DNA of 62,628 nt, counting the filler, from Stramenopiles sp. TOSAG23-6 (taxonomy: Eukaryota): the NCBI GenBank assembly GCA_900128565.1. It is 10 parts of 10 records of this genome, joined end to end, with 100 filler letters (N's around TTAATTAATTAA, not from the genome) between each part and the next. Parts side by side here need not be neighbours in the genome. Positions count along the whole stretch, not along the records: positions 1 to 11,078 come from LT636283.1; positions 11,179 to 22,198 come from LT636284.1; positions 22,299 to 33,222 come from LT636285.1; positions 33,323 to 44,231 come from LT636286.1; positions 44,332 to 55,232 come from LT636287.1; positions 55,333 to 56,713 come from LT639142.1; positions 56,814 to 58,193 come from LT639143.1; positions 58,294 to 59,672 come from LT639144.1; 2 more parts are not named here. One strand, written 5' to 3'. The notes under the pieces were generated by a model. It was not told the origin of the DNA. It searched no databases and saw only the letters and a list, made by a program, of their open reading frames with translations. Position 1 is the stretch's first letter. Each line of letters opens with the position of its first letter. Of this stretch, positions 58 to 62,628 are shown in pieces. The position numbers and the translations under genes are program-made.

Positions 58-1353
58 AAGAGGTTGATTTTGAACTGCTTCCCTCATTGATGAATAGTTT
101 TCCCCAACTTTCAAGCAATTATCAAATGGAAGTTTTCCAAAAATAAAGCAATATAAGGTTACTCCTGCAGCCCAAAGGTCAGCTTGGTATGCATCATACA
201 TGTATTTTTTGACAATAAACATGCAAGGTAAAATTTTCAAAAAAAAAAAAACAATTGAAATTGAAAAAATGATAAAAACATACATCAATGAATCTTTACC
301 ATGATCGTGCTTCGGATGCCTATAGATTTCCGGTGCCATAAACGCGGGAGTTCCTATATACCCTGAGCAAGGTAACAATGTCGTATTTCGTGGTAAACGA
401 ATTGCCATACCAAAATCACAGTATACATGTATTTTGAGACAATATTTTAAAGTTTGATTTTTGGATTCATTAGGTACAGAATTTCGTATGAAAAATAAAT
501 AAATTCGAAATTGAAAAAGATACACAGTGACCTCGACTGGATACCATAATATTAGCAGGTTTGATGTCACGATGGACAATGTATTTTAGAAAAATATTTC
601 AAAAAAAAATCGTTAAGTACAAAATTTACTATAAAAAAAAATTCGAATTTGAAAAAAAATATTTCAAAAAAAAATCGTTAGGTACAACATTTACTATTAA
701 AAAAAAAATCGAATTTGAAAAAAAAATAAAACATACATCCCATTATGTTTGAAATATAAAAGGCCACTCAACATGTCACAGAAATAGTCCTTAGCAAGCG
801 CTTCAGGCATTACACTTTGAGTACTTTTACGATAAAAAAAATTCTTTTCAAATTCCAATGTCTGCCCTCCCCCAAAATATTCAAATACCAATAGTAGTAT
901 ATTCGATTTTTGCTGGAAAAACTCATCCTGTCCAATCACTTCGTAGAGTAAGGCACAATTTCGATGGAATATATCTCTTGATATGTCAACTTCATGCTGT
1001 ATCATGTCAAACATTGTAGTCCGTCGTGCTTTGCGTTCATTTCTTTGTTGTTGATAAATATGTATTTTACGCAATTTATTTAAGGTATACTTTTTCACAG
1101 CAAAGCACTTCGGTTTTCCAGAAATTATTCGTTCACAGAGATAAACGTTTCCACAACTACCAGCCCCAAGTTTGCGCAAAACTTTTAAATCATTGAACCA
1201 AGTGTCACCACTTTGTTTTTCAACTTTCAAGTAAGGTGTGAACTTACAATCCCACTCTTCAAATCGAGGAAAACTATCCTCACTATACTTGGTTTCAAGT
1301 ACGTTTTGTCGTACCGGTGGTGGTGGTGGAGGCGACGGCGGTGGCACTTCCAT
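58..1353 (-). CDS. Ser/Thr protein kinase, CaMKK-like; exons 1353-737, 578-524, 426-284, 199-58; 3' end truncated
   Basis: LGAGSCG, FAVKK and GTPAFMAPE motifs; GIVHRDIKPANI, CVYCDFGMA and YDAYQADLWAAG are restored by removing 3 family introns. Confidence 0.9.
200..283 (-). mobile_element. Family intron GT-AT, 84 nt, in frame and stop-free
   Basis: ttgat|GTATGTTTT...AAATACAT|gtatgat gives SLMYDAYQ; branch motif degenerate. Confidence 0.75.
427..523 (-). mobile_element. Family intron GT-AT, 97 nt
   Basis: cactgt|GTATCTTTT...GTACCTAAT...AAATACAT|gtatactgt gives GHCVYCDFG. Confidence 0.85.
579..736 (-). mobile_element. Family intron GT-AT, 158 nt, with internal tandem duplication
   Basis: gggat|GTATG...AAATACAT|tgtccatcgtgac restores GIVHRD. 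Confidence 0.9.
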
Positions 1354-1690
1354 TCTACTCGGAATTGAAGATGAGTTAGTTTACCTTCAAAATCATTGGC
1401 TGGCGAAGGAACCTTAATGAGTAATCTGTTTTAAAACTTCGAAATAAATGGAAAAAAAGAAGAAGATTGATAACTTATATACTTTTGACCAGCCAAAAAT
1501 GACGTCAATCGAAATCGAAATCGGAGATGCCACGTGTTAATTTCAAATTAAAATTTTTTTTATCAATTTTTTGAATCAATCGAAATGAAATCGCGCTCCT
1601 CGGGCAGAGTATCGGTACCATTGTGTAAAACAACAACTGGGATTCTTATGTACCACAATGTATCTTTATAAAAAAGCGAATATGTAGACG

Positions 1691-3786
1691 ATGAGAGTAC
1701 CATCAATTTGTATAAATATTTTTCTGCTAAAGTTGTCTTGCGTACTAGCACAACCGTATCAATCTTGGTAGGTTTCATTTATCACTTTCGACTGATTCTT
1801 TTTTTTGTTGTTTTAACTTCCATTGAAAGTGTATATGTTATAAAGTTACTTTCATCCAAATATCCTCCAATAAGCGTAAATGATACATTTCGGACTAACA
1901 TGAAACATACATACGCAAATATTTTGTAATACGTCGCATGTAAGTTCATCGTTTCTTGAATACATCTAATATATAAAGTTGGCTTTTTTTTATATTTAAG
2001 AAATGAAAAACTAATTGATCTCCGTGTTTGAAAAACTCTCACTTACAGGAAAACTGCTGTCGGAGCATTGACAAATGGTCAGAATTATACCCCACCTCAC
2101 TGTAATAGTGATAACCAACAATCTATATGTTGCGTTTACCAAGCAGACATAGGCTGCTATAAAGTGAAAGGAAACTACGACGGAGCACTTCAACAGGTTT
2201 CTCCTCCAAAAGCGTGCACAATCTCAGATATTATCTATAAAGGTATAGTGGACTGCTGTTATCATGAAGGCATATGTCAACAAAAGAATCCACAAGAATG
2301 CTCAAGAATGGGAGGTATGTGGTGTGGCTATGATACGTGTAATCCAGTTTGTAAAGCTGGTTTCGATGCTGAAGAAAATTGTACAGCTTGTCCTAGCGGA
2401 AAATATTCGTGGATAAATTCACCATGTAATCTATGTGATCGAGGTTACGGTAAAACTATTGAAACACCTGTTGAAACACCAGTTAAAACACTAAACAAAA
2501 TTAAATGCCCCGGATGTGCTATTGGTAAGTACAAATCTGTGAGAGATCAACTTCCGTGTAAACAATGCCCAGTAGGAAAGTATTCAAATACTATGAATGC
2601 TTCCGTATGTAAGAGTTGTGAAACAGGAAAATATTCAAGTAAACAGGGTGCTTCTACGTGTAAAAGTTGTGATGCAGGACGCTATTCAACTGGTACTGGA
2701 TGTACAGAATGTGACGTAGGTTACTACTCCAGTCGGGAATCATCGATGTGTTCTCTATGTGCTAGTGGACAATATATAGATCGTAAAGGTGCCTCCAAAT
2801 GTGAAAAATGCCCCATAGGAAAGTTTCCACACCATACAACATGCTCGGCTTGTCCTGAAGGGAAAAGTGTCATGTTGGATAACAAGCCATACCAACAGCC
2901 CGAGGACTGTTCAATATGTGACGTAGGATATGAACCGGATAAAATATCTAGTTCATGTAGTTTGTGTACTCCAGGAAAAGCTAAAAGTATTCCAGGTAAC
3001 TCTCAATGTAATAAATGTGAAAGTGGGAAATATTCATACAATGACCCTACTAAATGTGACGAATGTGCCACTGGAAAATATTCTACGCCAAATGCAACTG
3101 AATGTAACTTATGTCTTCCAGGGTATAAAAAAACTAAAAGTAATACATTTTGTGAAGCATGTCCAGGTGGAAAGTATTCTCTGGATAATGAATCCTCTGA
3201 ATGTAAAAATTGTACTGAGGGAACATATTCTGCTGATGGTTCTTCTGAGTGTACAACATGCTCTCTTGGAAAATTTGCATTAAATGGATCTGATGAGTGC
3301 ACACTTTGTGACAAAGGCTACAAGTATATATCACCAACGGCAACACCAACTGCAGCACCAACAACTGCAACACCAACTGCAGCGCTAATAACTGCATCAC
3401 CAACGGCAACACCAACAGCCGCACCAACAACTGCATCAGAAACATGTACGTTGTGCGATGCGGGATATTACAAAAATACACAAGATAACAAAATTTGGTG
3501 CTCTCCGTGTCCTAACGGGAAATCCTCAGATGCAGGGGCTCCAGAATGTGGAAACACACAGCAGTTATACTTTCAACACTGCAAAATTCCAATCTTTTTG
3601 TGTCACGCTGTGAGAAAACAAATCAAGGAAACACTTACAAGAATGTGTCAAAACATGTCGATATCATTGAAAACGTGTTCAGTGAATGCAATCATAATTT
3701 TGACTACTACAACTTTAAGTGGGATTATTGGAGTAGGTGTAGTTTATTTCAGTCTAAAAACACTCCACAAAGTTGATTTGAGATAA
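1691..3786 (+). CDS. Cys-rich surface protein (GCC2/GCC3, TNFR/ephrin-receptor-like repeats) with signal peptide and C-terminal TM helix; exons 1691-1767 and 2049-3786
   Basis: Many C-x2-C-P-x-G-K-Y repeats and a Thr/Pro/Ala-rich stretch; a canonical intron joins a hydrophobic leader in frame. Confidence 0.8.
1768..2048 (+). other. Canonical GT-AG first intron, not a family member
   Basis: tg|GTAGGT...ACTAAT...TTACAG|g, phase consistent. Confidence 0.75.
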
Positions 3787-3838
3787 ATTTTATAAATTAT
3801 AACTTGTATCGTTTTGTTGATTTTTGTTATGAATAGAA

Positions 3839-4204
3839 TTAATCTTCTTGTTTTGCTTGGTTAGATTCAGGTTTACTTACAGAAGTGATTTTTGTGACTC
3901 CGTCGTTGTAACATTCACGTATTTCCATTAATGTTGCTGCTGTTAGATTGTGGCACTTGATTTGTATGTAACTCACAATAAGTATTGAAAAAATACCAGC
4001 AAAAATCGCGGCAGTACTACTTGTAATTACACAGTCTCGATCAAAAAAGGACTTGCTATTGCATCTTTCTTTAAGGATTATGTCTCGAACTGTTTCTTCA
4101 GATAAATTACTCAAGAAAGCTTCATCGAAACATTCTTCTGTGGCCTCAATTACAAGAAGTGTAAGACATATAATATTTCGAAGCTGATAACGTTCAAAAC
4201 CCAT
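3839..4204 (-). CDS. Small hypothetical membrane protein
   Basis: 121-aa ATG ORF with hydrophobic leader and one TM segment. Confidence 0.5.
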   Translation of the reverse strand: MGFERYQLRNIICLTLLVIEATEECFDEAFLSNLSEETVRDIILKERCNSKSFFDRDCVITSSTAAIFAGIFSILIVSYIQIKCHNLTAATLMEIRECYNDGVTKITSVSKPESNQAKQED

Positions 4205-4574
4205 TCGTCTTTTCTTTTTCTAATAATACAAGCAGACGGTTTTTGAGTTATTGGTACTGCGAGTCAATCAGAGACTACTTTTACTAGAATATTTATCGTT
4301 CTCGAAAAGATCAGATAATTAGTATACGGAGATGATCGGCACGCACCTTAGCTTTCAAGCATGTGGTTAGTCTCTACCGGTAGGCAATTGATGGTACCGA
4401 TATTCAAAGTGCAAAAAGGGTATGAAAATAGATTACTGTAAAAATTATTTTTTAAACTTCAGGACGACAAGAATTCAATTTAAATTCGAAGAGCGAAAAA
4501 TATAATTAACACGAAATCAGACAAGAAATCTTGAAAAATCATTACTGTTATGTTTATTCAATACTATGTGCATC

Positions 4575-5413
4575 TTATTTGTACTGATTATTCATCATAG
4601 TTGAAGCCGTCACTGGAACTCTCCCCATCTGTGCAGCATCAAATGATGTTTCAAGTTTTTCCTTGGTCTTGTATTGTTTTTTCTTACCTGACCAAGGGAC
4701 GTACTTATGCTTCCACATATGCTTAATTTGTCTCTTCATGGTCAGAAAAAAAAGAGCACAAAAATACATTAGAAGAATAGGCCAAAACACAGGAATATTA
4801 AAAATATTGAAAAACGTCATAAATAACGAGATTAATGTTGCACGCATACATGATGTCCAGAATTTAAATTCCGGAACGCGGCGTTGGAATGGTCTGTACT
4901 CCGAGTTACTACTACCAGGGAGGGTTGCCTCATGAGATTCAGGATCTATTTCAGGCGATAGAAATCCAATGAATAGATTTAACAAATATATTCCTAACCC
5001 ATACGTTATAATATACCATCCTTGTAATAACCAGACTCGTAGCATATAGACAAATAATAAAAAGAAAAAAGAACCCCAACGGGCTTTAGGCCAGACGGTT
5101 GACTTGTCCAGAAAATGCTGCATTTTTCTTTAGTTTACAAAAGATAAACAAACATCAAAAAATGAGTCAATGAAGAGTTCAAAAAAAAGTATAGCTAGAT
5201 TATGATTCAAAACCAAATGTTGATGTAATTGGTGAAAGCCACTTTGATCACTGACAGAGTACTTTTCAGAAACACAAAAAGTGAACACTGACGGGAAACA
5301 AGCGGGTAGAGAGAAAACTAATCAAAAGAGTTACATATAGCTTACCTGGAGTATGCTGCTTTTACGTGATCCATCATTGTTGATTCACTGACATCTGCTT
5401 CCAATGGATCCAT
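4575..5413 (-). CDS. RER1: RER1 Golgi-to-ER retrieval receptor; exons 5413-5346 and 5127-4575
   Basis: YIITYGLGIYLLNLFIGFLSP, EYRPFQRRVPEFKFW, PVFWPILL, MKRQIKHMWKHKY. Confidence 0.95.
5128..5345 (-). other. Canonical GT-AG first intron, not a family member
   Basis: ccag|GTAAG...CTAAAG|aaaaatg, phase consistent. Confidence 0.85.
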
Positions 5414-5775
5414 TCTTTAAAGTAAGGCTGTAAAAAATAATGCTGTAAATAATTAATTTGCACTGATTTCGTCCACCAGATATTTTATACAGTACGCCCG
5501 CGCTTCTTCTTATTCATTTCTATCAAAAATTTCCCCAAAAATTTGGCAAAAATTTGCTCGCGAAAAATCAGAAAATTTCAACAGGTAGTACCGGGTATCG
5601 TTGGTTGTGAAACTGTAAGAACTCACTTGTCTACTACTACGACGACGATGTCATTTTATTTTCTTTTTCATTTATAAAAATCTTGCATCGTAAAGAAGTT
5701 ACGTTGCGTGTTAGCAAACCTTATCAAAACTATGAAAACTATGGAAACTATGAAAACTATGACTAAGTAGCAATT

Positions 5776-8700
5776 ATGAAGGAAAGTGTCATAAAAAAAC
5801 GTCCGTATACAGCTCCTATATTGAACTACTGTAAAAAACCTTACATTCCATTTGCTAGGATTGATTCTTGGAGTTCTTCTCGTGAAGAGCCACCAAAACG
5901 TTCGTATAGATGGCGTCCTAGTCAACATAAAACTACTGATGGAAGCATAGGTTGGGATATCAATTACAAAGGTGGTGGCGCAGTTCAGTCAAATATAGAT
6001 GAACAAAATAGAATGAGACATCAAGGAAAACCAAAAGATTTTATAATTGAATTGAATGTCGAAAATATTAATACTTCCTTAAAGAAAAAGGCGTTCATCA
6101 CTAAAGAAAGAGAATCTATTATGTCTTCAGGAACAGAATGGAATTTCTCATTTGCTACATCAAATAAAGCACACGCTACAACTATAACAGCTATTTCGTG
6201 TTCACCTTTGATTCCCTCCAAAACGTTTCTCGATATGGAAAATAGAAACATGAAAGCATATCAACTTGATATAAATGATACAAATCGTCGCACTTGTGTT
6301 AGTGCTCATGGAAAGTTGCAGCATGATACGCGAAACAATAACTTTGAATATCGTAAAGGATTTGATGCATTTAACAATGATAATGAAAATAAAAGCAATA
6401 AAATTTTTCAGAACTTTCAAGATGAAAGTTCTCATATAATCGGCCAGATCGCAGCCACAGGTGATGCTGATGGTATTATTAAATTATGGAACATTGGTAC
6501 AAATGGCGACAAAGAAGCACTACAGTTGCTTATCGATACAAAGAATAACCAAATAGAAAAGAAAACGACATTGAATTCAAAAATTCATACAAAAATAACT
6601 ACAAAGAAAAAGTCAAGATTTCGTCGCTCATGCTTTTTTGAACTCACAGGGCACAAAAAGTGTATTACATGTCTTGATTTTTCCCCAAATGGTAAATTTT
6701 TAGCATCCGCATCACAGGACAAAACTGTGCGTATTTGGAATATTAAAAATGGTTTATGTTGTGATATTATTGATGGTCATACTTCCTGGGTTACATGAAT
6801 GTTTAATTTTTTTTCAAATTCGAATTTTTTTTTATAGTAAATTTTGTACCTAACGAGTTTTTTTTGAAATATTTTTCCAAAATACATCCGTTTCTTTCTT
6901 TTCAAGTGGCAATAAAATTATCACAAGTTCTTGTGATCGAGGGGTGCGAATCTGGCGAAATGAAAATATCAAATTTCATAATACACTTGAATCAACAACT
7001 CAAAGTACAGAAAAAACACAGAAATTAGAAAAAATAGAAAAATTAGAAAAAATGAATTATAGTACATGGGAGTTACTACTAACAATGTCAGATCGTTCAA
7101 AATCTGTTCGGGAGGGTCATGGTAAGTGTGGTTCGAAATCGGGTCATAAAGGATATATCACATCATGTGCGATTTCTCCAAATATGAAATATGCAGTATC
7201 AGCTTCAAATGATTCAACTCTTAAAATTTGGGACTGTAAAACAGGAAAGTTATATAGAGACTGTATCGGTCACAATCACAGTGTTTCAGATGTGAAGTTT
7301 CATAAATCTTCACTTCACATGTATGTTTTATTTTTTTTTTTAACAAAAAATCGAATTTTTTTTTTCATACGAAATTTTGTACCTAACAGATTTAAGTTTT
7401 TTTTTTTGTGAAATATTTTTCCAAAATACATATTGTCCGCTTCTTGGGATAAAACTTTGCGTTTGTGGACTTTAGAAGGAAATTGTGGTACAACTTATGT
7501 CGGCCATTCAGATATTGTATATGCGTGTTGTTTTTCTCAAGATGGGGAATATGCCTTTTCAGTATCTCGTGATAAAACGGTTCGAATGTGGGAAGTAGGA
7601 ATGTATGTTTTATTTTTTTTTTTTACAAAAAAATCGATTTTTGTTTTCGTACGAAATTTTGTACCTAACAAATTTAAGTTTTTTTTTGAAATATTTTTTC
7701 ATAATACATGTTTGGTCGTTGCTTGAATGTGTATTCTATAAATGGACATAGTCATTATATCACTAGTATAGCCTGCAGTGCAGATAGTACAATGCTCTTG
7801 ACAGGATCTAAAGACATGACAGTAAAAGCGTGGAGAATAGGAACAGAAGGTGAAAGTATCTGCACAAATTCACCCGCACAAAACTTAAAAAATATGAAAA
7901 ATACAAATAGTAAAAAGTTTAAAAAATATCAAAGAAAGACAAAAAAATGGTTGAAATATAATGTCATTGTGGAATTAAAAGTACCAAAAGGTGGACTTTT
8001 ACTAGGTCATTTACATGGTAAAGCATCACAAAAATTGAAGAATATGTTGAATTCGTTTTTAGAATTTTCTGAAAACTCTGGCAAAGTAGCTTTCCCTACT
8101 TTACAGAATATAGAAAAGACAATTCTTGAAACAAAAAAAAGTATTCCATCAAATGATTCTTCTGATCCTTTTATAAATGATTTTGATTCTGATATGGTAG
8201 TAAACATTGCAAATGAAAGTAATGAAATGAAAAAGCTGGAAAAAGGCATGATGACAATTGATCAATTCTGTGCTAGTGGAATTCGAAATGCAACGGAGGA
8301 AAATTTTTTTAGACTTTTATCTGGAGAACAAAAATATAAAGACATATATACAGTAAGATTAAGAGACTGGAACACAATTGAAAGTAATAGTTCTGAGAGA
8401 GAATATGTATTATATCATGCGGAATCTGGAGATGAAATTTGGTTTAATCCAGTTTTAATTGAAGTTTTAACACAAAGACCAGAGGAGCTATTATCACATC
8501 CCTGGGAAAAGTTGCAAGATCAAGAAGATAACAATTTAGGTATGGGAGATTTTATCCCTGGTCAATATTATTATTGGAATCGAGCGACAAGTATAACCAC
8601 CAAAGAAAGACCAGAAGCTTTGTTTAAATCAACAGATATAAAAACAAAATTAGAGATAAAAAGAGCATGTCATGAAGCAAGTAGTGCTGCTTTAGAATCT

Positions 8701-9534
8701 GTTGGTATGATCAAAACATTTTGTATGGAGACAGAAGAAATTGTGCAGCTTGCAATAGAAGAAGAGAAAAGGAGAAAAATGGCTATGCAAAATGCTGCTG
8801 CTATTTCTTTGGAAGCAGAAAAATTTGCAACAAAGGTTGCTGACAGTTGTCAGGAAACCATTACCAAGAAAGCCATCTTCGATGCAGCATCCATTTCTTT
8901 TCTTGCATCATCAGTTGCACAATGTTTTTCATTTTGCAGTACCGTACAAAAAGAAGGTCGTGTAGAAGTTCACTACTTGAAGGAAGATAATTGGTACCCG
9001 GGTACAGTAGAAAGTATAGATATTGATGAATTTACTGAAGAATTATTGCTTGAAATTCATTTTGATGATGGTGATATAGAAAAAGAGGTACCAATTAATA
9101 GAATTCGCGGAATCTCAAAAGATAAAGAAACAACTATTGAAAAAAAATTATCTGAGATAATAAACACTGCTATTGTTGCGGCCAAAGCGGCAAGCGAAGT
9201 TACAAAAGAAGTTTATAATATTACAGATACAATACTGAACCCTAACATTACAGATACAAATAAAATACTGAAGATTCCCATCATCGAGAAAACGCTAACA
9301 AAAAACAAAAAAACAAAACAACAAAAAAAAGTAAAGAAAACAAAAATGAAAAAAGCAGAAAATACAAATGTATTGAAATCAAAAGGACCAACAGAGAAGG
9401 GCATAAAAATAATAAAAAACAAAGCAAAATCCAAAAAAAAGAAAAAAAACATGAAAAAGTCGACAACGATAAAATCAAAGACTCAAAAGAAAAAGAAGAA
9501 AAAACAAAATGTAAAAAAACAAGCAAAACGATAA
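5776..9534 (+). CDS. WD40-repeat protein with WW-like and Tudor-like segments and a Lys-rich tail; 4 or more exons
   Basis: Repeated GH...ASASxDxTxRIW units, continuous after removing introns 6797-6887, 7321-7431 and 7603-7709. Confidence 0.85.
6797..6887 (+). mobile_element. Family intron, variant GA-AT (equivalently AT-AC if shifted by 2)
   Basis: ttacat|GAATGTTT...AAATACAT|ccgtt gives GHTSWVTSVSF. Confidence 0.85.
7321..7431 (+). mobile_element. Family intron GT-AT, 111 nt
   Basis: cacat|GTATG...AAATACAT|attgtcc gives HILSASWDK. Confidence 0.9.
7603..7709 (+). mobile_element. Family intron GT-AT, 107 nt
   Basis: ggaat|GTATG...AATACAT|gtttggt gives WEVGMFGRCL. Confidence 0.88.
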
Positions 9535-9761
9535 TATTTTTCGTATGAAGTTTTGTACCTAACAAATTCTAGTTTTTTTTTTGAAATATAAAAAAAACAA
9601 GTAAACCGATAATTTATTCCATAATCTAGGGGTAATCTTAGGGGTTGTTTTAAATAAATCACTGTAACCATTGGCGACATGTATTCATTAATAAGACGTG
9701 TACATTTCATCGGGTAAAATCTTCGAACGTTGTGTAAAAATCAAGTTATTCCGAAGATCCT

Positions 9762-10106
9762 CTATTTAGTTTTCGAAAAATTTCGAGCAACATCAACAAC
9801 CTTTGTTCTGAATAGCATAACGACCATGAAAACGACATAAGCCTTAACCACAACATCTGCTGAGAAATACTGAGAATTATTCCTTATGAATCGTTTGCCA
9901 GAGGTACTGAATCTAGCCAAGACCAACATAAAGAAAAGAAAAAAAGGTACTTGAAGAAAAATTTGCTCAGGATTTTTGAAACAGCCTAGTACAGATTCCT
10001 TCCAGGTCTTTAGCTTCGAGACAGAAGCACTTGATTTAGGTGACTTCTTACGGCCAGGACTCTTTGATCTCGTGCGCTTAGGAGTCCTTGATCTGGTAGT
10101 TGCCAT
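9762..10106 (-). CDS. Small membrane protein with RS/SP-rich basic N-terminus
   Basis: 114-aa ORF with two hydrophobic segments. Confidence 0.6.
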   Translation of the reverse strand: MATTRSRTPKRTRSKSPGRKKSPKSSASVSKLKTWKESVLGCFKNPEQIFLQVPFFLFFMLVLARFSTSGKRFIRNNSQYFSADVVVKAYVVFMVVMLFRTKVVDVARNFSKTK

Positions 10107-10540
10107 TTTGTCAATTATTCACTGTATTGTGTTGGAGATACTCGTAAAAGTGTTCACGATGAGTTTTAATGAGAGTGAGTTGAGGATGGAGAGTAACTAC
10201 AAAGTCAGTATAAGGGAGTAACTAAAACAAAACAGAGTAATACTGTACACTCTTGTTTCTTTGGTACTATGAGGTATATTACTTACGTGGGTAATTCCAA
10301 TGTAAATATATAGAGGACAATAATATGATATTATCTTTTCGCTTTACTCGTGAGGCACACGCGGATCGAACGCGGATCGAAGAACTCAAAAAAAAACTTT
10401 CAAATTTTTGAATTTTTGAAAAATTGGCGGGAAAAGATTTGATTAGGGTTTACCCAAAAATTTAAATACTACTAAAAGTCTAAAACAAAATAATTGCGAC
10501 TAAAAATAATAAATAAATACCAATGATGAAATTATTTTCA

Positions 10541-11025
10541 TTATTCATTACTTGTACTATAATCAGCCCATTTTGTTTCACCAGTACTATGATCATGCAA
10601 ATAAGCATATCCATCCTCCGTGATATATTCAGTCCAGTGACTATTCTTTTTCGTACGAAATTCTGTACCTAACGATTTTTTTGATTTATTACTGATGTGT
10701 TTCTCATTTTTTTCAGTCTGTTGTATCGTATTTTCCTGTGTTTTTAACAAGTTTTCATCTATTTTGTCACAAATAATTGATTTCATTTCATATGGATCGT
10801 GACTAGAACTTATAAATTGTTCCTTTTGTCTCAGCGAAAAATGTTCAGGATTTTTTGTTGTGCGACGTGAACTGAAATTATTTTTGATTTTTTGTGATTT
10901 TTGTGTGTTTCGTGAATTTTTGACGGTGTGGCTGCTATTACTGGAACTATTCGACATACCATTTTCCTTGTTTCTAAATTTGTTTTTATTTTTCGTACAT
11001 TTTTGATGATTTGTTATAGGTTTAA
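10541..11025 (-). CDS. Last exon of a WW-domain protein (partial)
   Basis: WTEYITEDGYAYLHDHSTGETKW; the frame is open up to a family acceptor at 11026. Confidence 0.75.
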
Positions 11026-11078
11026 ATGTATTTTGGAAAAATATTTCAAAAAAAAAAACTTAAATTCGTTAGGTACAA

Positions 11079-11178
11079 NNNNNNNNNNNNNNNNNNNNNN
11101 NNNNNNNNNNNNNNNNNNNNNNTTAATTAATTAANNNNNNNNNNNNNNNNNNNNNNNNNNNNNNNNNNNNNNNNNNNN
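11079..11178. other. Artificial contig spacer; others at 22199, 33223, 44232, 55233, 56714, 58194, 59673 and 61152
   Basis: Identical 100-nt N/TTAATTAATTAA/N blocks; contigs decrease in length. Confidence 0.98.
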
Positions 11179-11224
11179 ATTTTGTACCTAACAAATTTCG
11201 AATTTAATTTTTTTTACAATACAT

Positions 11225-30111: not shown

Positions 30112-30159
<48 letters not shown>

Positions 30160-49117: not shown

Positions 49118-51529
49118 CTAAAATGTATAAGGTGAAATACCTTTAGTACCCCACTCTTGAAGTAATGATACAGCTTCAATTTTTCGTAAAGGAATCTGAT
49201 CACATCCTCTGCCACCTTCTTTTTCATTTTTCCATGATAATTTTGTAAATACTAAAAGCTCTTTTTCGTTGACAGGCAAACGACAATTTATTCTTTGGAA
49301 ATCATCAATTGCCTGCCTAGATGCTGTCTTATTATCTATTTCCATCTCGGGGGAGTAATTTGCCCACTTTCTATTAAACCAAATCATTTTTTCTATTTGC
49401 GCTATCATTTTGCCTTCTTCATCATCTTCACCAATCCTTTTTGTACATGGATTTCCATCCAGTTTGAGCTCATGAAGAGTTGTATTTTTCCTTGCAAAAT
49501 CTCTTAATGTTTCCAATGTTGCAGAACTAATATAATTATTTGAAATATCAAGCATTTGCATTGGGTAAGGTTTACGTTGTTCCATCGCGGAAACTAGCTG
49601 TGAAATTCCTACATCCCCTATATTGTTATCATTCAAACTCAATAAACATATATATTGATTTGATGCAGTTGACAGCAGTGAGGCTATTTGTATAGCCCCG
49701 GAATCAGTGAGATTATTATGACCAAGGCCAAGACCAATCGTAAAAGTAGATATATTTGGAGACTTTGGTGACTCTAAAGCTACAATTAAATGGGATATTC
49801 CATCATCACCCAAATTATTACCCGAGAGATCCATACTCACAAATGTATTGTATTCATTCATTGCCATTAGGGTGGACGTTTCTATTTCTTTTTCACTTGA
49901 ATTTCCACCAAAATGTGTTGTTTTCAGTGCGCATTGTTTCAAAGCATTCAATAGAGCAACAGAACTAAACGCTGACAAGTCATTGAAACTAACGTTTAGA
50001 ATTTTCATATTTGAGGATGTCACCGATTCTAATGATTTTGCTAATGCGAATGCACCATCATCTTGAATTGCACACGCAGATATATTGATTGAAGTTAGCG
50101 ACTCGCTTATTTGCCTCTTTGCAAATGCTTCCGAGAGCGCTTTAATACCAATGGAGCCGAAGGTATTAAAAGATAAATCCAATGACTTTAGAGGCGCCGT
50201 ACCACAATAATTGGTATCCAAATCATTTTCAGTATCACGCCCCGAAAGAATTACTACAAGTGTATTAGCAATTGCACGCACTCCGGCTTCTCGAATAAAA
50301 TTCCCAGAGAGGTCTAGGTGTGATAGAATGTATTGTGAAAAAATAACTTACATTTGAAAATTGTTAGGGTATAGAATTTTCTATGAAAAACATATAAATT
50401 CGAAACTCATGATAATAACGTACATGCACATCGGTGTCATCAATACTGACGCTATCGATATAGCCCCAACATCGCCCAAACATGTATTACTCAGATTCAA
50501 TGAAGTGAGTGATACACCTGCACTAAGTACAGGAGCTAAAAATTGAACTCCCATATCTCCAATATTATTCTCAGCCAAATTAAGAATAGTGATTGGTAGA
50601 GGTTTCCTCATTCTATTTTTGAGCCAATTATGGTGCTTGTTGATGGCAAATTGATCAATTTGTGTCGGATCAAATTTACTTAACAGTGACACGGGATCTA
50701 AACTACTGGGAGCTTCTTCTAGAATCCCATGTCTATCCCCACGTAACATACAACTAAGAGTACGGAAAAACACTGGGCCCTTCAAAAAATTCAGTCCACA
50801 ATTACTAAGATCGATTGCTTTTATATTATTAGCTCCATGTGTTTTGGAAATACCAATTGAAGCTAGTATTATAGCTGCCCCAGTTGGTCCAATTGACGTA
50901 CCTGATAAATTTATAGTATAAGGTTGTTCTATAATGTCACGTGGATTTATATCTTTCTGAGAATTTAAAGTCTGCGGTATACCAATATTCCTCTTTTCAA
51001 TATTTTGCGTTACGTTTTGTAGACAAGAAGCTATTGCAAGAGCACCAAACATGCCAAGGTTTTCTCCAGAAAAATCTATTGCTCTTTCCCAACGTGTGAG
51101 TATTAACTCAGTGACAACTTTCTGAAATTCTTCCTCTTTTATATGTAACTGCTTTATATGTTCTGACAAGGTACCCGCTTGATTTAACATAATTTTTTGA
51201 GATATTTTATTGATTTTGGTGGCTATAGATGCACTCGTAGAGTTATTGAGTTCACAGACAGGTTTTATTTCGCCACAACACTTACTCTGCGCAGCTTTAC
51301 ACATCGTAACACTTGCATCGAAACACTTCACAGCAGCGTCGTACCAATTTAGCGCCAATTTTAGTTGCTGAGTATTCTGAGTTCTTTTTGTGCACGTTTC
51401 ATTATTTTGTTTTCTTTGTATTTCCTCTACGTGCACTTTTGTTTGTACGAGCTCACATTGGGATAGATCTACGCGAAGAAGCGCTGTTTGCCAATCCTTG
51501 AAATACTTGACGGTACTCTTGCTCAACAT
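49118..51529 (-). CDS. RNI-like leucine-rich repeat protein; 2 exons
   Basis: LxLxxNxIGDxG repeats. Confidence 0.88.
50328..50423 (-). mobile_element. Family intron GT-AT, 96 nt
   Basis: tgcat|GTACG...CAATACAT|tcta gives CILSHLDLSGN. Confidence 0.88.
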
Positions 51530-52094: not shown

Positions 52095-55000
52095 TCATAA
52101 AGTATCCAAAAAATGTAATTGCGATTTGTCTCTTTTAGATTCAGCAGTGGATATAATTTCCTTGCGATCTGTATTGTTTTGATTTCTTGTTTTTTCTGTA
52201 ACAACTGCAGTTTTTACGATAGAAAATACATCATGTAATAATGCAAGAATTGACATAAACAATGCAACAATCATAGAATGAAAAGCATGTCCTGTCTTTG
52301 AGTCAAAAGTAGGTGATGTTGCTCTAGATTTCAATATGTCAAAATACGTTGAAATACAAAAGAAAACGATGACTAAATTCCCGACAAATTGCAAATTTGC
52401 ATTGATTTGTATTGCTTTCAGCTTTAATTTCGAAAAAGATTTGGTAAATGATATATAGTATTTGATGATGAGTGACATAATCATCATAATCATAAAAATT
52501 TCAATTATAATTATCTCAAAACTACCTTCAAAAACACCTGGGAAAATATTATATGAAGAAAAACAAGTTGTTTCATCTTGGTAATGTAAACAAGATTTCC
52601 ACATACCAATATACATCCGCAACTCAATGCTATAGCTGATACGTTGCCAAATTCCATTTATAGGTATCTCACCTAAATCAGTTGATTGTCCTACGATGTA
52701 GCAGATAAACATAACGCCATCAAATACAATGCTTAAAGTTTCATTTCTTTCAAATTTCGGAGTAGCATACTTACATAATACAACAAGTAAAATAATTGTG
52801 ATGAACAAAAACAAATAGACTGCAATTCGACCAACTATATTGTACCGGCCGTTGTCTCCTACTAAGCTATCTTTTCTTGCTGTATCTGAGCATGTTCCAT
52901 TTGCATAGCAAAACTGACCTATCTTACAGTTTGTTTTTGTATCATTTGCATGTGATGTAATTACTTTGTTTTTGCACAAACAATTGTCTTTATCCACGTA
53001 AAACTTCCCTAATCCTGGGTCACATTGAAATCCGAATCTACATGAATATAATGTAACGCCATTCATTCGAATAGGATAAAAAGCAGTTTCTATCGGTGGA
53101 TAAATTGTACATATTTTTGTACTTGTCCCATATGCGAAATGAGCACATTTCAACTCCAAACGCCTACATGTCTCGTAACACTCAAATAGTGTTGTCTCAA
53201 CGGGTGTAGCATAAGTACTCGTCCCTGGTGGATAACTTGTATTTTCTTGTATCATTTCACAATTTACAATGGTGTTTTGAGCGCGCGAAGGAAAAATATA
53301 CGAAACTGTTAGTGAAACATTCAAAGTTTTCTGTGTATCTTGTACACTCACACCTCTATCATACAACTCACAATATTTAGTTTCAGCGATATAAACCATT
53401 GCAGCACAAAATGAGTTGTCAATACATTTTGTATAACAATCATTAACCGATTGAATACCAGAGTGTCTAATCAGTAAATTTTTATATGTAGAATGATTGT
53501 TAAATTCACAATTTTGATACTGTACGGCATCCTTATCATTAACAAATTCATCAGTCTTCAACCCTTTACAATTATCCAACGATATGGAAACATGTTCATG
53601 TTCATGTTCTTCTCCATTTTCAGCAGAACATACTCCATCATGACACCACTTTGACTTTCCACAAGGAGTATCATTCAATTGTCCTAGACCGGCAAAAGCA
53701 GACATGGAACTACACCGATTTCCAATTCCGCATTTAAAATGACATAAATCCTTGGTTATACCACAAAAATCACCCACAGAATCCAAATTATCACAAAATG
53801 ATAATTCACAGACTCCACTTACACACATACCAATTCGTGTTTGAGATCCTACGTTCTGTGTACATGGCGTTCCTAATGTAAAGTATCCATTATCAGTACA
53901 ACAATCGCTACCAAAGATAGATTCAGGAGAACAATCTTTTCCGTCTTCTAATGTACAATTGTTACAATATTTGCATGAATTAGACTTATCCATACACTCA
54001 CATTCATCACCTCCTGATATAACACCGTCACCACAAACTGGTTTGTAAAGCTCTACTTGTTTTCCAACAATACATTTTTTCAAATTTCTTTCAAGAGTTT
54101 TACATGTTTTGTGAAAAAAAAATTTAGTTAAAAAAATTGTTAGGTACAAAATTTCGTATGAAAAAAAAAAAAATTAGAAATTCATATCAAACGTACATAT
54201 ATACTTTCTATTCCCTTTATGGAATTGATACACGTGATCTATTTGGAGACGATAGCCATAATCCATTATACCACCGATGTTTCCTGCTTTTCCCAATGGC
54301 CGATCATATATTGTGAATTTNGTTTTTGTAAAATTCGTTAGGTACGAAATTTCGTACGTAAAAAAAATAGGTAAAAAATTGAAAAAAAAAACGTACCCCG
54401 TTTTTAGGATCAAATAAATGTTTACCACCAAGACCATGACCTACTTCGTGAGCAAATGTTATCCAAGACAATTCTCCTTTTGTGACATTCGTGGCACCAA
54501 CATTCAGTATTTCGCACAGGCCTCCAGTATATGCGATTTTGTAAAAATATTTCAAAAAAAAAAACTAAAATTTGTTAGGTACAAATTTTTTTACCAAAAA
54601 AAAAAAATAAATTCGATTTTTTTGTAAAAAAAAAATAAAACGCACATGCGATACCTAAAGTTCTATCTATGTTATTATTAAGTTCAAAAATATGATACAA
54701 AGCATATTCTGAAGATACTTTTGTCGCCGCATTTACAACTCTCAATTTGGAAATTTGATCACCTAATTTTTTTGAATTTGTATTGTCATGTATTTTGGAA
54801 AAATATTTGAAAATTTACCAAAAAAAAAAAATTGTTAGGTACAAAATTTTTATAAAAAAAAAAGTTCAATTTCAAATTAAATAAAAAAATAAACATAAAA
54901 CATACATATGAAACATGTACTGTTAAATAATCCACTTTTTTGATTTTAAGCACAATATCAAATTGTTGCTTATATATTTGATTTGTCTTCTCAACAATTG

Positions 55001-55232
55001 ATGTGAGAAATTCGTTTGCTTTGTTTTGATTATTACCAAATGCTTGGAATAAGTTTTTCGTAACTGTGATATGTATAAGAAGAGTCTCAGGTACTGTATT
55101 GTGAAAAAAAAAAAAAAAAAAATTGTTAGGTACAAATTTTACTATGAAAAAAAAAAACTCAAAAAAAAAAAAAAAAAAAATCATGATGAAAAAAAAATTT
55201 GTCCTGTACATGGTTTCCCCTCATCGATTTTT
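52095..55232 (-). CDS. ADAM-like (M12B reprolysin) metalloprotease with disintegrin-like, PAN/apple-like and claudin-like C-terminal regions; 5' end truncated
   Basis: AHEVGHGLGGKH, Met-turn GIMDY, CGDGVISGGDECEC, GMWKSC plus several TM helices. Confidence 0.88.
54104..55209 (-). mobile_element. Five family introns: 54104-54196, 54306-54396, 54531-54645 and 54788-54905 (GT-AT); 55094-55209 (GT-AG)
   Basis: Removal gives one frame including LGIAYTGGLC and KYICKTL. Confidence 0.85.
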
Positions 55233-55332
55233 NNNNNNNNNNNNNNNNNNNNNNNNNNNNNNNNNNNNNNNNNNNNTTAATTAATTAANNNNNNNNNNNN
55301 NNNNNNNNNNNNNNNNNNNNNNNNNNNNNNNN

Positions 55333-55928: not shown

Positions 55929-56262
55929 TTAAATACGTTCAGAAAAATACACAACGACAACAGTGATATCTTCAATATTATGCTTCCTTAATTTTGCATT
56001 TGCTTTTGCACCTTGTACTAAAGCAGTGACGGCATATTTTGTGAAAAAAAAAAACATTACATTTTGTTAGGTACAAAATTTCGTACCAAAAAAAAATTAA
56101 AATTTTTACATTGAAATTCATGATAAAAATGTACATGCTCTGGTTTAATATAACTTCCAACTATATTGCAAACTGTTTCCATAGTCATATATTGTAAAAG
56201 AGCATGTTTTGTAAAGATATATACAAAAAAATACAATGTTTTTATTAGGTACGAAATTTTGT

Positions 56263-56309
<47 letters not shown>

Positions 56310-56679: not shown

Positions 56680-57020
56680 GTTAGGTATGAAATTTCGTAT
56701 GAAAAAAAAAATTNNNNNNNNNNNNNNNNNNNNNNNNNNNNNNNNNNNNNNNNNNNNTTAATTAATTAANNNNNNNNNNNNNNNNNNNNNNNNNNNNNNN
56801 NNNNNNNNNNNNNCAGAAGGCCCTCAAGTGTTATTCTGCTCGATATCGGATATTTACCAATCGATTGAGTAACACCTAGCGCAAGCTAAGATTCAATTCA
56901 GGGCTGTTAAAAGAGTTCTGAAACATCAATAAGAAATATTGCTTATCAAAGATTGCAATATATAGTGCTAAGTTGTTGGCTTTCATATTCTTACCGTGTG
57001 TGTCATTGTTTCTCTTGGAT

Positions 57021-58193: not shown

Positions 58194-58341
58194 NNNNNNN
58201 NNNNNNNNNNNNNNNNNNNNNNNNNNNNNNNNNNNNNTTAATTAATTAANNNNNNNNNNNNNNNNNNNNNNNNNNNNNNNNNNNNNNNNNNNNAAAAAAA
58301 AAATTTCCCAAAAAAAAAAATTTTTTTTTTTTTTTTTCCCG

Positions 58342-58375
<34 letters not shown>

Positions 58376-58379
58376 ATAC

Positions 58380-59475
58380 ATATTTGCTTTAAGAATAATT
58401 GAATGGGAAAAAGCATCAATGTTCTGTTTTGAACCCAATTGATCTTTTAATTTTTTTGTAATGATTAATCCAATATGTAAAATTGTAACTCTTGAAGGAT
58501 CATTCGAATAACAGTTTTGAAATGTAGTGATACTCAATTTTCTTTTTGACTGGTGATGATCTGTTTCAATGGAATGAACATTTTATATGAAAAAATATGT
58601 CACATTTTATTTTTTATACATTTTTGTTAGGTACAAAATTTCATATGAAACATTAAATTTGAAATTCATAATGAAAACGTACTTTTGTTATATGAAGTTT
58701 ATTCGACTTTTGAAGTGACCGAAAATCATATAACTGTCCTTGCCAAGTAAAAATACCATCCAATATGGCTCCTGTACTTTCGATACTTTGGTTAGGGTTA
58801 GGGTTTTCATGAATAAAATCAGGTAATAGCATTAATGTATTGTGAATTTTTTCTTTTTTTTTTGAAAAATTTGTTAGGTACAAAATTTCGTATGAAAAAA
58901 ATAAATTCGAAATTTAAAAGCAATAATAATGAAAACGTACATAAAGCTTTGTCTTTGTTGTTTTGCTTGTTCTGAATTGATTTTTTTACCGATGATATTN
59001 TTTTTGATGTTGTTGATTTTGTTGTGTAATAAGGTACATCCCAAAAAATATCATTTTTATCATTTTTATCATTTTTATCATTTTCAGTAGAATGTTTTGT
59101 AAATAAAGAATGATGGTGTGTATCTTTTTGTTTATGTAATATAAAATTGACATTTTCATCATCGAGTTCTAACTGTAAATGAAGTATTTCTGCTGCTTTA
59201 ACTTCCTTATGAGATAATCTCCGATGATGTCTTTTATTACCTTGAGTATACAATATATTATGTGGTTCATTAACTGGTGTTGTACCCAATTCATTCGATG
59301 TAAGTATTCGTAAATTAAATGTATTTTGATACGTCTGAGTATTTTCAGGTTCGGAAAAACTTTCGAGATGAATTTTTTGTAGTAGGTCTTTTTGGTCTTT
59401 TTGTACCAAAGAGTAACACTGTATGATGATTTGAATACACAACAGAATGAAAAGGAATTTCTGTGTCATTGTCAT
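58380..59475 (-). CDS. N-terminal exons of a secreted ADAM-like protein; family GT-AT introns 58835-58940 and 58580-58682
   Basis: Signal peptide and prodomain-like region; ILHIGLIITK...IILKAN resembles 55093-54960. Confidence 0.6.
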
Positions 59476-59772
59476 AGTACAAAATCTTTTCGCGAGTGGT
59501 TTTTTGTTTATTTCGTTTGTTTCGTTTCAATGGGAAGATTTTTACTACTACTACAAGGTTCCGTTGAGAATTTGGAAAGTTTATTGGACTTACAAAAAAA
59601 AAATCTTTTTTTTTTTGTTTGAAACTCCGAAAATATCGATATGTAACGTAAATATTCGTCGTTTCGGCGATTNNNNNNNNNNNNNNNNNNNNNNNNNNNN
59701 NNNNNNNNNNNNNNNNTTAATTAATTAANNNNNNNNNNNNNNNNNNNNNNNNNNNNNNNNNNNNNNNNNNNN

Positions 59773-59820
59773 AAAAAAAAAATTTCCCAAAAAAAAAAAT
59801 TTTTTTTTTTTTTTTTCCCG

Positions 59821-59854
<34 letters not shown>

Positions 59855-61151
59855 ATACATATTTGCTTTAAGAATAATTGAATGGGAAAAAGCATCAATG
59901 TTCTGTTTTGAACCCAATTGATCTTTTAATTTTTTTGTAATGATTAATCCAATATGTAAAATTGTAACTCTTGAAGGATCATTCGAATAACAGTTTTGAA
60001 ATGTAGTGATACTCAATTTTCTTTTTGACTGGTGATGATCTGTTTCAATGGAATGAACATTTTATATGAAAAAATATGTCACATTTTATTTTTTATACAT
60101 TTTTGTTAGGTACAAAATTTCATATGAAACATTAAATTTGAAATTCATAATGAAAACGTACTTTTGTTATATGAAGTTTATTCGACTTTTGAAGTGACCG
60201 AAAATCATATAACTGTCCTTGCCAAGTAAAAATACCATCCAATATGGCTCCTGTACTTTCGATACTTTGGTTAGGGTTAGGGTTTTCATGAATAAAATCA
60301 GGTAATAGCATTAATGTATTGTGAATTTTTTCTTTTTTTTTTGAAAAATTTGTTAGGTACAAAATTTCGTATGAAAAAAATAAATTCGAAATTTAAAAGC
60401 AATAATAATGAAAACGTACATAAAGCTTTGTCTTTGTTGTTTTGCTTGTTCTGAATTGATTTTTTTACCGATGATATTNTTTTTGATGTTGTTGATTTTG
60501 TTGTGTAATAAGGTACATCCCAAAAAATATCATTTTTATCATTTTTATCATTTTTATCATTTTCAGTAGAATGTTTTGTAAATAAAGAATGATGGTGTGT
60601 ATCTTTTTGTTTATGTAATATAAAATTGACATTTTCATCATCGAGTTCTAACTGTAAATGAAGTATTTCTGCTGCTTTAACTTCCTTATGAGATAATCTC
60701 CGATGATGTCTTTTATTACCTTGAGTATACAATATATTATGTGGTTCATTAACTGGTGTTGTACCCAATTCATTCGATGTAAGTATTCGTAAATTAAATG
60801 TATTTTGATACGTCTGAGTATTTTCAGGTTCGGAAAAACTTTCGAGATGAATTTTTTGTAGTAGGTCTTTTTGGTCTTTTTGTACCAAAGAGTAACACTG
60901 TATGATGATTTGAATACACAACAGAATGAAAAGGAATTTCTGTGTCATTGTCATAGTACAAAATCTTTTCGCGAGTGGTTTTTTGTTTATTTCGTTTGTT
61001 TCGTTTCAATGGGAAGATTTTTACTACTACTACAAGGTTCCGTTGAGAATTTGGAAAGTTTATTGGACTTACAAAAAAAAAATCTTTTTTTTTTTGTTTG
61101 AAACTCCGAAAATATCGATATGTAACGTAAATATTCGTCGTTTCGGCGATT
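59773..61151. repeat. Apparently exact duplicate of contig 58294-59672
   Basis: Same sequence, same N position, offset 1479. Confidence 0.95.
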
Positions 61152-61560
61152 NNNNNNNNNNNNNNNNNNNNNNNNNNNNNNNNNNNNNNNNNNNNTTAAT
61201 TAATTAANNNNNNNNNNNNNNNNNNNNNNNNNNNNNNNNNNNNNNNNNNNNCCTAATAATTTTCCAAAAAAAAAAAAAAAATGAAAGTGTAATCGCTGGA
61301 TGATTCATTCTGTGAAATTTCATGATACTCTTTTTCGAATTTATCCATCAACATTGAAATTGGATCCGTACTCTATTTTGTACCTAAAGAATTTCGAATT
61401 CTGTAGAGGTATGAAACATGTATAAAAAATCAAAAATCATAAATTTTTGGTTTTCTTTATTTTCTTTATTTTTTTCTATAATCTATAAGTATAAGTTGAA
61501 AGTACTAAATAACTCAACCCTAGACTCCTAACCCTAACCTTAACCATACTAAGACCTCAC

Positions 61561-62628
61561 TTATCGAATTTCTATGACTACAATTTTCAATGCTTTTTTA
61601 AAGCCCCTAACACGAAATTTCTCCGCCAAAATTGACCAAATTTCTCCTGGAGAACACCCTAACCCTACTATTTTGTTATCAAACGTTGAAGTTTTAGGTT
61701 TTGATATTTCATTCGAAAAGTTATTAAAATTGCTCAAGTTAAAAATACCCATACTAGGTACTGGAGGAAGATCTTCAATATTTGATTTTTTTGACTTTTT
61801 TGATTTTATTGATTTTTTTGATTTAAAAACATCTGTACCGTACTTAGCGTTAGTGTTCGTACATAACGATTTTCTAATATACTGAATCAATTCTAAGCAC
61901 TCCTCTTCACAGTTACAATATTTTAACATAATTATGCATTGCTCTTTTGACGCAATGCCAGAATATACAAATGTTCCAAAGAGACGTAAGGCACGAGACC
62001 TAGTAAGCTTTCTTATTTGTTGGTTTGTCATTTCTTTACACATATTCTGATAATTAGGGCAAGATAATGTTAAAAGATTTTTTAAACGCGATATTCGTTT
62101 TTCGTCTAGTAATTTATGACTATATCTTTTATTTCGCCAAGATTTAGTAAAAAAAGTATTCCTATGAAAAAGTTGTGAAAATTCCAAAAGCGATGAAAAT
62201 TCACATGTATTGTGATATATATATATATATTATTGTACAATTTGTTAGGCACTAAATTTCATACCAAAAAAAAAAAATTGAAATTCATGATGAAAATGTA
62301 CAGATTGCATTTTGATAACCACACAAAACCATTTCATCAAATATTGCCATTGATAAAAAATTACAAAGTTTTGTAGACAAAATATTATGGTCAAAAATGT
62401 ATCTCATCAGTATTTGATACGACAATTGTGGGGATAAAAGGGCGACATTATATGACGGGATTTCATAATCTAGTAATTGTTTAATCATTATATATATATC
62501 GGATCTATATGTATTTTGGAAAAATATTTCAAAAAAAATATCGTTAGGGACAAAATTTCGTACGAAAAAAAAAAAGAATTTGAAGAAAAATAAAACATAC
62601 ATATACTATTTGGTTTTTGTAGTGTTTT
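61561..62628 (-). CDS. Hypothetical protein, 3' exons; family GT-AT introns 62205-62301 and 62509-62600
   Basis: Single frame after intron removal. Confidence 0.65.

Follow-up and report, generated by a model that had tools for sequence, protein, structure and literature searches.

The window analysed here, 62,628 nucleotides of the uncultured marine protist Stramenopiles sp. TOSAG23-6 (assembly GCA_900128565.1; ten parts of ten records, joined by 100-letter fillers), carries a family of short repeated elements that interrupt about 15 genes of different Pfam families and predominantly begin with GT and end with AT. The complete copies lie in sense orientation throughout, and exact removal is needed for the interrupted genes to be read. 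The family is best understood as a mobile, introner-like one, and its members are probably transposon-derived introns with GT...AT ends. The sense orientation together with signals of the U2 type favours removal at the RNA level, where the spliceosome would excise the copies, and their ultimate source would be a non-autonomous DNA transposon. The window has the base composition of AT-rich eukaryotic DNA (26-38% G+C), and the standard genetic code gives long open reading frames (ORFs) across it.

The 25-nt core of the element has 28 matches in the window at up to three mismatches, against none in 100 shuffles, and 41 matches at up to five mismatches. An nhmmer profile built from 24 core-centred copies gave 50 hits on the two strands of the window. 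The curated set comprises 31 distinct complete copies of 84-158 nt; two exact assembly duplicates are counted apart, and there are at least nine partial copies, several of which are cut by assembly gaps. A Pfam scan of 17 ORF pieces of the window identified Pkinase, WD40, LRR, Reprolysin, MFS, Tyrosinase and Tetraspanin domains in the exons flanking copies, and an Rfam scan of the window matched no family. The 5' dinucleotide is GT in 29 of the curated copies, GA in one and TT in one; the 3' dinucleotide is AT in 28, AG in two and AA in one. An AG-ending partial copy (55094-55159) and a doubtful GT-ending copy (33433-33563) stand outside the 31.

The typical copy starts with GTATGTTTT or GTACGTTTT and continues through a T-rich stretch, which includes a short piece resembling AAATTCGAATTT, to the core, TTTCGTACGAAATTTTGTACCTAAC, which is followed by a T-rich tract and an end that reads (C)CAAAATACAT or CACAATACAT. 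In an alignment of 30 copies, with a mean column identity of 50%, the best-conserved columns are G1, T2, A3 and T6 at the start, the branch-like GTACCTAAC, and CA..AAT.ACAT at the end. The median pairwise identity between copies is 0.68 and the nearest-neighbour identity 0.70-0.90; such low identity indicates that the copies are not young. The donor, GTAYGT, is of U2 type, and position +5 is G in 25 copies, A in four and C in two. In correctly bounded copies, the yeast-like branch motif (GTAC)CTAAC precedes the 3' end by 31-59 nt. The donor, the position of CTAAC and the T-rich tract are together the signals of major-spliceosome introns. The final triplet is CAT in 24 copies and TAT in three (27/31), and the base after the intron is G in 16 of the 31, giving an end of the form YAT^G (a caret marks the cut); normal introns end YAG^G.

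All 31 complete copies lie in sense orientation between ORFs (binomial p=9e-10). A crude count over the 50 profile hits gave 32 sense, 13 unclear and five nominally antisense; two of these five are misclassified sense copies that adjoin short exons, and the other three are fragments. The only truly antisense fragment, about 45 nt of core at 10591-10704 (+), lies in frame inside the (-) ORF 10541-11059 and may be an exonised fragment. We also note that it stands upstream of a WW-like segment, as read by eye.

The need for exact removal was examined by a frame test, in which the ends were set by short consensus motifs alone and the longest upstream and downstream open frames were compared for phase. 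Among 29 candidates, 27 were flanked on either side by an ORF of 30 codons or more, and the longest flanking frames joined in phase in 22 of these 27 (binomial p=3.8e-7 against an expectation of 1/3). Three of the five misses are short true exons (the kinase HRD exon, the MFS C-terminus and an AAA exon) and two are bad candidates. Intron phases are mixed (9, 7 and 6 of the 22). The lengths of the 31 copies are spread evenly modulo 3 (11, 11 and 9) with no excess of lengths divisible by 3, so that about two thirds (20/31) would shift the frame if kept. In the kinase gene, the Pkinase profile is matched at positions 2-118 before the copy 579-736 and at 140-179 after the copy 427-523, which leaves about 21 profile positions for the 18-residue exon between them. 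A copy on an independent metagenome contig (L002:2475-2578) has the form ACAT^GT...ACAT^, and its removal brings 178 and 46 open codons into one phase. Introns outside the family could not be counted reliably by a generic ORF-joining scan or by a relaxed motif scan (156 candidates), both being too noisy, and only profile-supported rows were used.

The AAA-ATPase gene provides the closest view of the boundaries. When its five copies were cut from GT to AT by coordinates and the product was aligned with five CDC48-type homologues, all five junctions were gapless. The only close public protein, P0011, is 96% identical over the matched part and is evidently the gene model of this locus (28918-32618, +). 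P0011 is wrong at all five element sites, where it has insertions or deletions relative to the homologues: 29 residues are dropped at site 1, 12 element-encoded residues are included at site 2, sites 3 and 4 are garbled, and at site 5 the 96-nt copy is read straight through. P0011 is a prediction that misses these introns and not RNA evidence, and other gene models of this assembly probably share its problem. A representative protein search with AAA exon 2 returned only P0011 and one unrelated protein, and a search with a WD40 exon for near-identical transcript-derived proteins found none, the eight hits being generic WD40 proteins at 25-51% identity.

A gene model that reads through or into several copies could also be taken to mean that the elements are never removed, being recent disruptive insertions, tolerated in-frame insertions or assembly artefacts. 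Eleven of the 31 lengths are indeed divisible by 3, some copies (such as 32147-32242) have no in-frame stop, and element sequence occurs in contigs of RNA runs. Nevertheless, retention would break about 15 genes in 62 kb, with 20 of the 31 copies shifting the frame, and reading through 32147-32242 puts 32 residues into the conserved AAA-domain segment ...GLL^IVGATNRP.... The copies are old by their nearest-neighbour identities, but the ORFs on either side of them remain intact and in phase, and all complete copies are in sense orientation. The presence of the same element in independent metagenomes further argues that it is not an artefact of one assembly. We find persistence of the elements in the mature message hardly credible.

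Nearby AG acceptors cannot replace the AT ends. For 19 of the 28 copies with an AT end, no AG that would preserve the frame lies within 30 nt. If the cut is instead moved to the first AG found 12 nt or more beyond the branch A, the frame is maintained in just 8 of 27 copies, as often as chance would give. The only definable intron outside the family, in the RPS5 gene (17275-17534), reads GTAAGT...CACAG; this shows AG in use as well, so that AT does not qualify as the organism's main 3' site.

The original prediction, made from the same window, had described a pervasive introner-like family of 36 complete copies in about 14 unrelated genes, always in sense orientation, with 30 ends in AT, three in AG, one in AA and two in GT. 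The core and profile searches bear out the family, the count of complete copies comes close (31, besides the two duplicates and the partial copies), about 15 genes were found, and the dominance of AT stands in the recount of the ends given above. Sense orientation holds for every complete copy, one core fragment of about 45 nt being antisense. Removal does restore the kinase HRD and DFG, WD40 and AAA motifs at the junctions listed in Table 1, and the LRR and M12B genes named in the prediction are recovered by the Pfam LRR and Reprolysin matches in flanking exons and by an M12B junction in the table. GT...AT as the most consistent pair of boundaries is supported by the frame test, the AAA alignment and the AG test, and the use of nearby AG acceptors instead, which the prediction had raised against itself, agrees poorly with the 8 of 27 copies that keep the frame. 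The proposal that CAT serves as the main 3' splice site of the organism finds no support in the RPS5 intron.

The exon upstream of the element ends in AT in 19 of the 31 copies, compared with a background of 10% (p=5.6e-12). This feature is present in 12 of 16 copies of the more uniform subfamily and in 4 of 10 of the more diverged one, ACAT precedes GT in both extra copies from metagenome contigs, and CAT (eight copies) or TAT (five) stands directly before the 5' splice site in 13 of the 31. Most likely, the terminal AT would have arisen by duplication of a 2-bp AT target site, as its second copy; the last two bases of the intron would then come from the duplicated target, and GT and the branch site from the element itself. 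The 3' AT is kept in 28 of the 31 copies against 19 for its upstream twin (Fisher p=0.016), a difference consistent with the 3' AT being under selection as a splice signal. On the other hand, AT is its own reverse complement and extends the inverted ends GTAT...ATAC, which makes it indistinguishable from a target duplication without empty sites; it may thus belong to the element.

The AT on both sides also permits another reading: the introns would be the same, but the cut would fall in a different register (AT...AC or TG...CA), or a minor (U12-type) spliceosome in transformed form would make it. Where AT precedes GT, in 19 of the 31 copies, AT...AC or TG...CA cuts give the same mRNA as GT...AT. 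The copy 6797-6887, which starts with GA, can still be read as AT...AC, two of the 31 copies start with GTATCT, and the 3' terminal bases of U12-type introns are known to be flexible. Moreover, the Physarum study describes GT-AT as a minor class of U12-type introns and proposes transposon-like termini with a TA target. The 12 copies without upstream AT, however, can be read only as GT...AT or with a one-base shift, and two of them, among the five AAA introns, are fixed by the homologue alignment. An AT-AC reading is impossible for AAA-ATPase intron 3 (31724-31813), which has TT upstream, and for the copy 54306-54396, which has GG upstream and a TAT end. Position +5 is C in only two copies, GTATCC occurs in none, and the RTATCCTT donor is thus absent. 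The invariant CTAAC is placed 31-59 nt from the 3' end and accompanied by a T-rich tract, and TCCTTAAC is not found close to the end; in U12-type introns the distance from the branch site to the 3' end is about 10-26 nt. A different register or machinery is accordingly unlikely, and for copies with AT on both sides GT...AT would be the register in use.

Removal of the elements might also proceed at the DNA level, as for ciliate internal eliminated sequences, or from RNA by pairing of the ends and without the spliceosome, as for euglenid nonconventional introns. The short terminal inverted repeat (AT)GTAT...ATAC(AT), the 6-bp terminal stem in the minimum-energy folds of three of eight copies and the direct AT repeats at the borders are consistent with such a process, and a distinct mechanism is proposed for Amoebophrya introners with repeats and non-canonical ends. 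In contrast, excision of DNA is indifferent to orientation and all 31 copies are in sense; the best-conserved positions are the U2-type donor, CTAAC and the T-rich tract; and in X3, a DNA metagenome of independent origin, the summed depth of the element is very high. The fold energies are no better than those of shuffles in seven of the eight copies (z from -2.6 to +0.6, one below -2), and structure-guided removal is therefore not invoked. Ciliate-type sequences are orientation-independent and accompany a non-standard nuclear biology, whereas sense orientation and a standard code are observed here; the euglenid introns have stable end pairing, variable borders and no pyrimidine tract, whereas these copies have a T-rich tract and uniform GT...AT ends. 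We regard both routes as very unlikely.

Contigs of three RNA runs and one DNA run were placed on positions 1-11078 of the window, the matched contigs numbering 7916 in X3 (DNA), 1257 in X4 (RNA) and 1283 in X8 (RNA). The summed word depth, which is not a copy number, is 470-19,000 in bins with an element and at most 8 in most element-free bins, a ratio of hundreds to thousands; this depth and the contig numbers suggest very many copies in natural populations. The exact core had no match in metagenome contigs, where a degenerate core was found at two loci, and the core pattern had no match in viral contigs.

Several of these and other observations weigh against the introner-like reading. The RNA contigs on this part of the window contain exons only or elements only, none of those listed bridging an element, and there is no clean element-sized joint among the 15 joints listed out of 259; since no RNA junction was recovered, splicing is something that we infer. 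Nearly all depth of the X4 and X8 RNA runs falls in element bins, and some RNA-run contigs pass from the element into flanks that differ. Element sequence in these runs may stem from DNA carry-over or from copies retained in some molecules. Judged by sequence, the cutting register is not fixed in the 19 copies that have AT before GT, and one copy starts with GA and one with TT. The transposon origin is challenged by the 12 of 31 copies that lack upstream AT, by a terminal inverted repeat of only 4-6 bp and by the search of the data, in which no empty site and no autonomous element were found. The only transposon proteins in the Pfam scan of the ORF pieces are of Helitron type, and no transposase could be linked to the family. 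The shuffle-level fold energies are a further point against the introner-like reading. Finally, a GT...AT pair is not known to fit well in the second-step active site of standard spliceosomes.

Introners, found in Micromonas, Aureococcus, dinoflagellates, fungi and other eukaryotes (Gozashti et al. 2022 and 2025), resemble the present elements in that one family occupies introns of unrelated genes in sense orientation, and in being short, AT-rich, non-autonomous and common in marine protists. An introner brings one splice site with it, and the target-site duplication can provide the second (PMC9860276); the co-option of a splice site is matched here, but with a non-AG target. The described families end in AG, unlike the 28 of 31 copies that end in AT here, and the hallmark GY...AG (or AT...AC) boundaries of introners are not those of this family. 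The survey of Gozashti et al. 2025 accepted only AG and AC as 3' sites and discarded unfamiliar unverified families.

The closest functional parallel is Fritillaria, where AT is the most frequent 3' intron end (44% in F. pellucida and 34% in F. borealis) and non-canonical introns close with a YAY triplet, which is often also found before the 5' splice site (Soo et al. 2026, PMC13326754). A MITE-like origin (MITE, miniature inverted-repeat transposable element) has been proposed; removal is by the major spliceosome, with divergent U2AF paralogues recognising the odd 3' ends (PMC13326754, PMC11282704). The dominant 3' AT and the YAY end (27/31) are shared with the present family, in which YAY precedes the 5' site in 13 of 31 copies as compared with "often" in Fritillaria. 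The Fritillaria classes start with AG (AG/AC, AG/AT), with less than 10% GT/AG, whereas a normal GTAYGT is seen here, GT being the start of 29 of 31 copies. A strong CTAAC branch motif, a single repeat family and a stramenopile protist host, rather than an animal, further distinguish the present case.

Non-canonical introner elements have also been described in Amoebophrya (Farhat et al. 2021, PMC7789003), a marine protist with repeated introns, inverted-repeat ends and short direct repeats over the borders, in which standard gene predictors fail, as they do here. Amoebophrya has many boundary pairs, inverted repeats of 8-20 nt, variable direct repeats of 3-5 nt and GC-rich genomes; the present family combines one dominant GT...AT pair and inverted ends of 4-6 bp with clear U2-type signals and an AT repeat that does not vary. 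ISL2EU transposons (of the PHIS, or PIF/Harbinger-ISL2EU-Spy, group; Han et al. 2014, PMC4122938) make a 2-bp target duplication, typically AT, and prefer AT-rich targets. The likeness to ISL2EU consists of the AT flanks alone, no transposase, long inverted repeats or empty site having been found here. In Physarum, GT-AT introns make up 17% of 1,014 non-canonical U12-type introns (Larue et al., bioRxiv 10.1101/2020.10.12.336362); like the present copies they have GT and AT at their termini, and a transposon with a 2-bp target has been put forward as their source. Unlike U12-type introns, the present copies lack both an RTATCC/TTT donor and a branch motif at 10-12 nt from the end, and GT-AT, a small minority in Physarum, accounts for about 90% of this family.

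Our literature searches found no family dominated by GT-AT with U2-like signals and no introners reported for marine stramenopile (MAST) lineages. The main texts of the MAST single-cell genome and MAST-3 culture genome papers make no mention of such introns, and the words "splice" and "non-canonical" have no occurrence in the main text of the former. The belief, in the original prediction, that there is no comparable system on record has to be corrected in view of the precedents of Fritillaria, Amoebophrya and Physarum.

A wider proposal can be advanced tentatively, and it may well be wrong: this stramenopile lineage could have independently evolved a major spliceosome that takes YAT as an efficient 3' site, which would have allowed an ISL2EU-like, AT-duplicating MITE to make GT...AT introns and colonise thousands of genes. 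If true, this would be a convergent counterpart of Fritillaria in which the target specificity of a transposon dictates the splice-site rule, and it predicts altered factors for recognition of the 3' site (U2AF or second-step factors). Should RNA data agree, a second, unrelated lineage would use 3' AT at scale. The normal 5' and branch sites isolate the question of the 3' site, namely how the spliceosome takes U for G at the last base of the intron. Since a target-site duplication appears to define a non-canonical splice site, transposon-driven evolution of the spliceosome becomes testable. At a density of about 36 copies per 62 kb, the elements would have a wide effect on gene content and on protein sets obtained from such assemblies, and introner surveys that take only AG or AC ends would miss such families. 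The copies and one comparator intron are collected in Table 1.

Table 1. Copies of the element in the window, with one intron from outside the family; a caret marks the junction in the joined protein or the cut in the DNA.
Feature	Position	Strand	Ends and context
Diverged copy without core, kinase gene	200-283	-	GT...AT; AT ends upstream exon; joins ...GKDSLM^YDAYQADLW
Kinase-gene copy	427-523	-	GTATCT...ACAT; restores GHC^VYCDFG
Kinase-gene copy with internal tandem duplication	579-736	-	restores HNG^IVHRDIKP
WD40-gene copy	6797-6887	+	GA start, ACAT direct repeat; restores GHTSWVT^SVSFFSSG
WD40-gene copy	7321-7431	+	GT...AT; ACAT upstream
WD40-gene copy	7603-7709	+	GT...AT
Partial copy, 3' part, adjoins assembly gap	11020-11078	-	ends ACAT
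Comparator outside the family: canonical RPS5-gene intron	17275-17534	-	GTAAGT...CACAG, read from sequence
Tetraspanin-like-gene copy	18126-18215	-	GTAGAT...ACAG, AG end
Partial copy, 5' part; 3' end lost in assembly gap	22299-22387	-	donor GTATGTTTT after GTAT
MFS transporter-gene copy	25697-25790	-	GT...AT; GCAT upstream
MFS-gene copy, ambiguous start	26187-26282	-	TT; alternative GT start 4 nt upstream, the end then moving on by 2 nt
AAA-ATPase intron 1	30922-31019	+	GT...AT; junction PGPD^ERSIL, gapless vs 5 homologues
AAA-ATPase intron 2	31449-31539	+	GTTCGT...ACAT; junction VQWD^DVGGL
AAA-ATPase intron 3	31724-31813	+	GT...AT; TT upstream; junction SNAT^FLSLSG
AAA-ATPase intron 4	31936-32030	+	GT...AT; TT upstream; junction LDEL^EALVG
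AAA-ATPase intron 5	32147-32242	+	GT...AT; 96 nt without in-frame stop; junction GLL^IVGATNRP
Partial copy, 3' part, adjoins assembly gap	33323-33376	+	ends ACAT
Degenerate copy, uncertain ends	33433-33563	+	possibly ...ACGT
Tyrosinase-domain-gene copy	34905-35026	+	GTACGT...TTCAT
Copy	44595-44708	-	GT...AT; TTAT upstream
Partial tandem pieces, two profile hits, 5' end undefined	44885-44992	-	
Copy with internal duplication	45196-45345	-	GT...TAT; CAG upstream
Copy with AA end	45441-45567	-	ATACAA
5' fragment only	47157-47205	+	profile positions 27-92
Copy, canonical-looking ends	47532-47660	+	AG^GTATCT...ACAG^GT
Copy	47878-47990	+	GT...AT
Copy	48373-48506	+	GT...AT; GCAT upstream
LRR-gene copy	50328-50423	-	GT...AT; GCAT upstream; flanking ORFs 368 and 402 codons
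Reprolysin (M12B)-gene copy	54104-54196	-	GT...AT
M12B-gene copy directly after HEVGHGLGGKH	54306-54396	-	GG upstream, TAT end
M12B-gene copy	54531-54645	-	GTGCGT...CGCAT; junction TLGIA^YTGGLCE
M12B-gene copy	54788-54905	-	GT...AT
Partial copy, 3' part, 5' end undefined	55094-55159	-	ends ACAG
Copy	56034-56134	-	GTACAT...ATAT
Partial copy, 3' part, behind long T run	56203-56275	-	
Copy	58580-58682	-	GTACGT...AAAAT; AA upstream
Copy	58835-58940	-	GT...AT
Exact duplicate of 58580-58682	60059-60161	-	assembly duplication, offset 1479
Exact duplicate of 58835-58940	60314-60419	-	
Copy	62205-62301	-	GTACAT...ACAT; CT upstream
Copy; upstream exon leaves window	62509-62600	-	GT...AT; ATAT upstream

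The tandem duplications inside 579-736 (-) and 45196-45345 (-) cover the part from core to tract and leave two branch-like motifs in each copy. Six assembly gaps adjoin element copies (11079-11178, 22199-22298, 33223-33322, 44232-44331, 55233-55332 and 56714-56813), as is expected if this repeat breaks assembly. The blocks 58294-59672 and 59773-61151 are identical at an offset of 1479, and each is flanked by N-TTAATTAATTAA-N linkers; they probably represent an assembly duplication, which doubles two element copies. A single ORF of 1909 codons at 37105-42834 (+), with Helitron_like_N and PIF1 helicase domains, is apparently an intact Helitron transposase and contains no copy of the family.

Among the metagenome contigs, L001:1-1076 is chimeric, with an element copy (at about 88-170) followed by unrelated AT-rich sequence, and its end is presumably a Nextera-type adapter. 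On the contig L002, a GTAAGT donor is located after the exon that follows the element, and telomere-like CCCTAA/TTAGGG pieces are present at 2230-2330 (-), downstream of the element-carrying gene.

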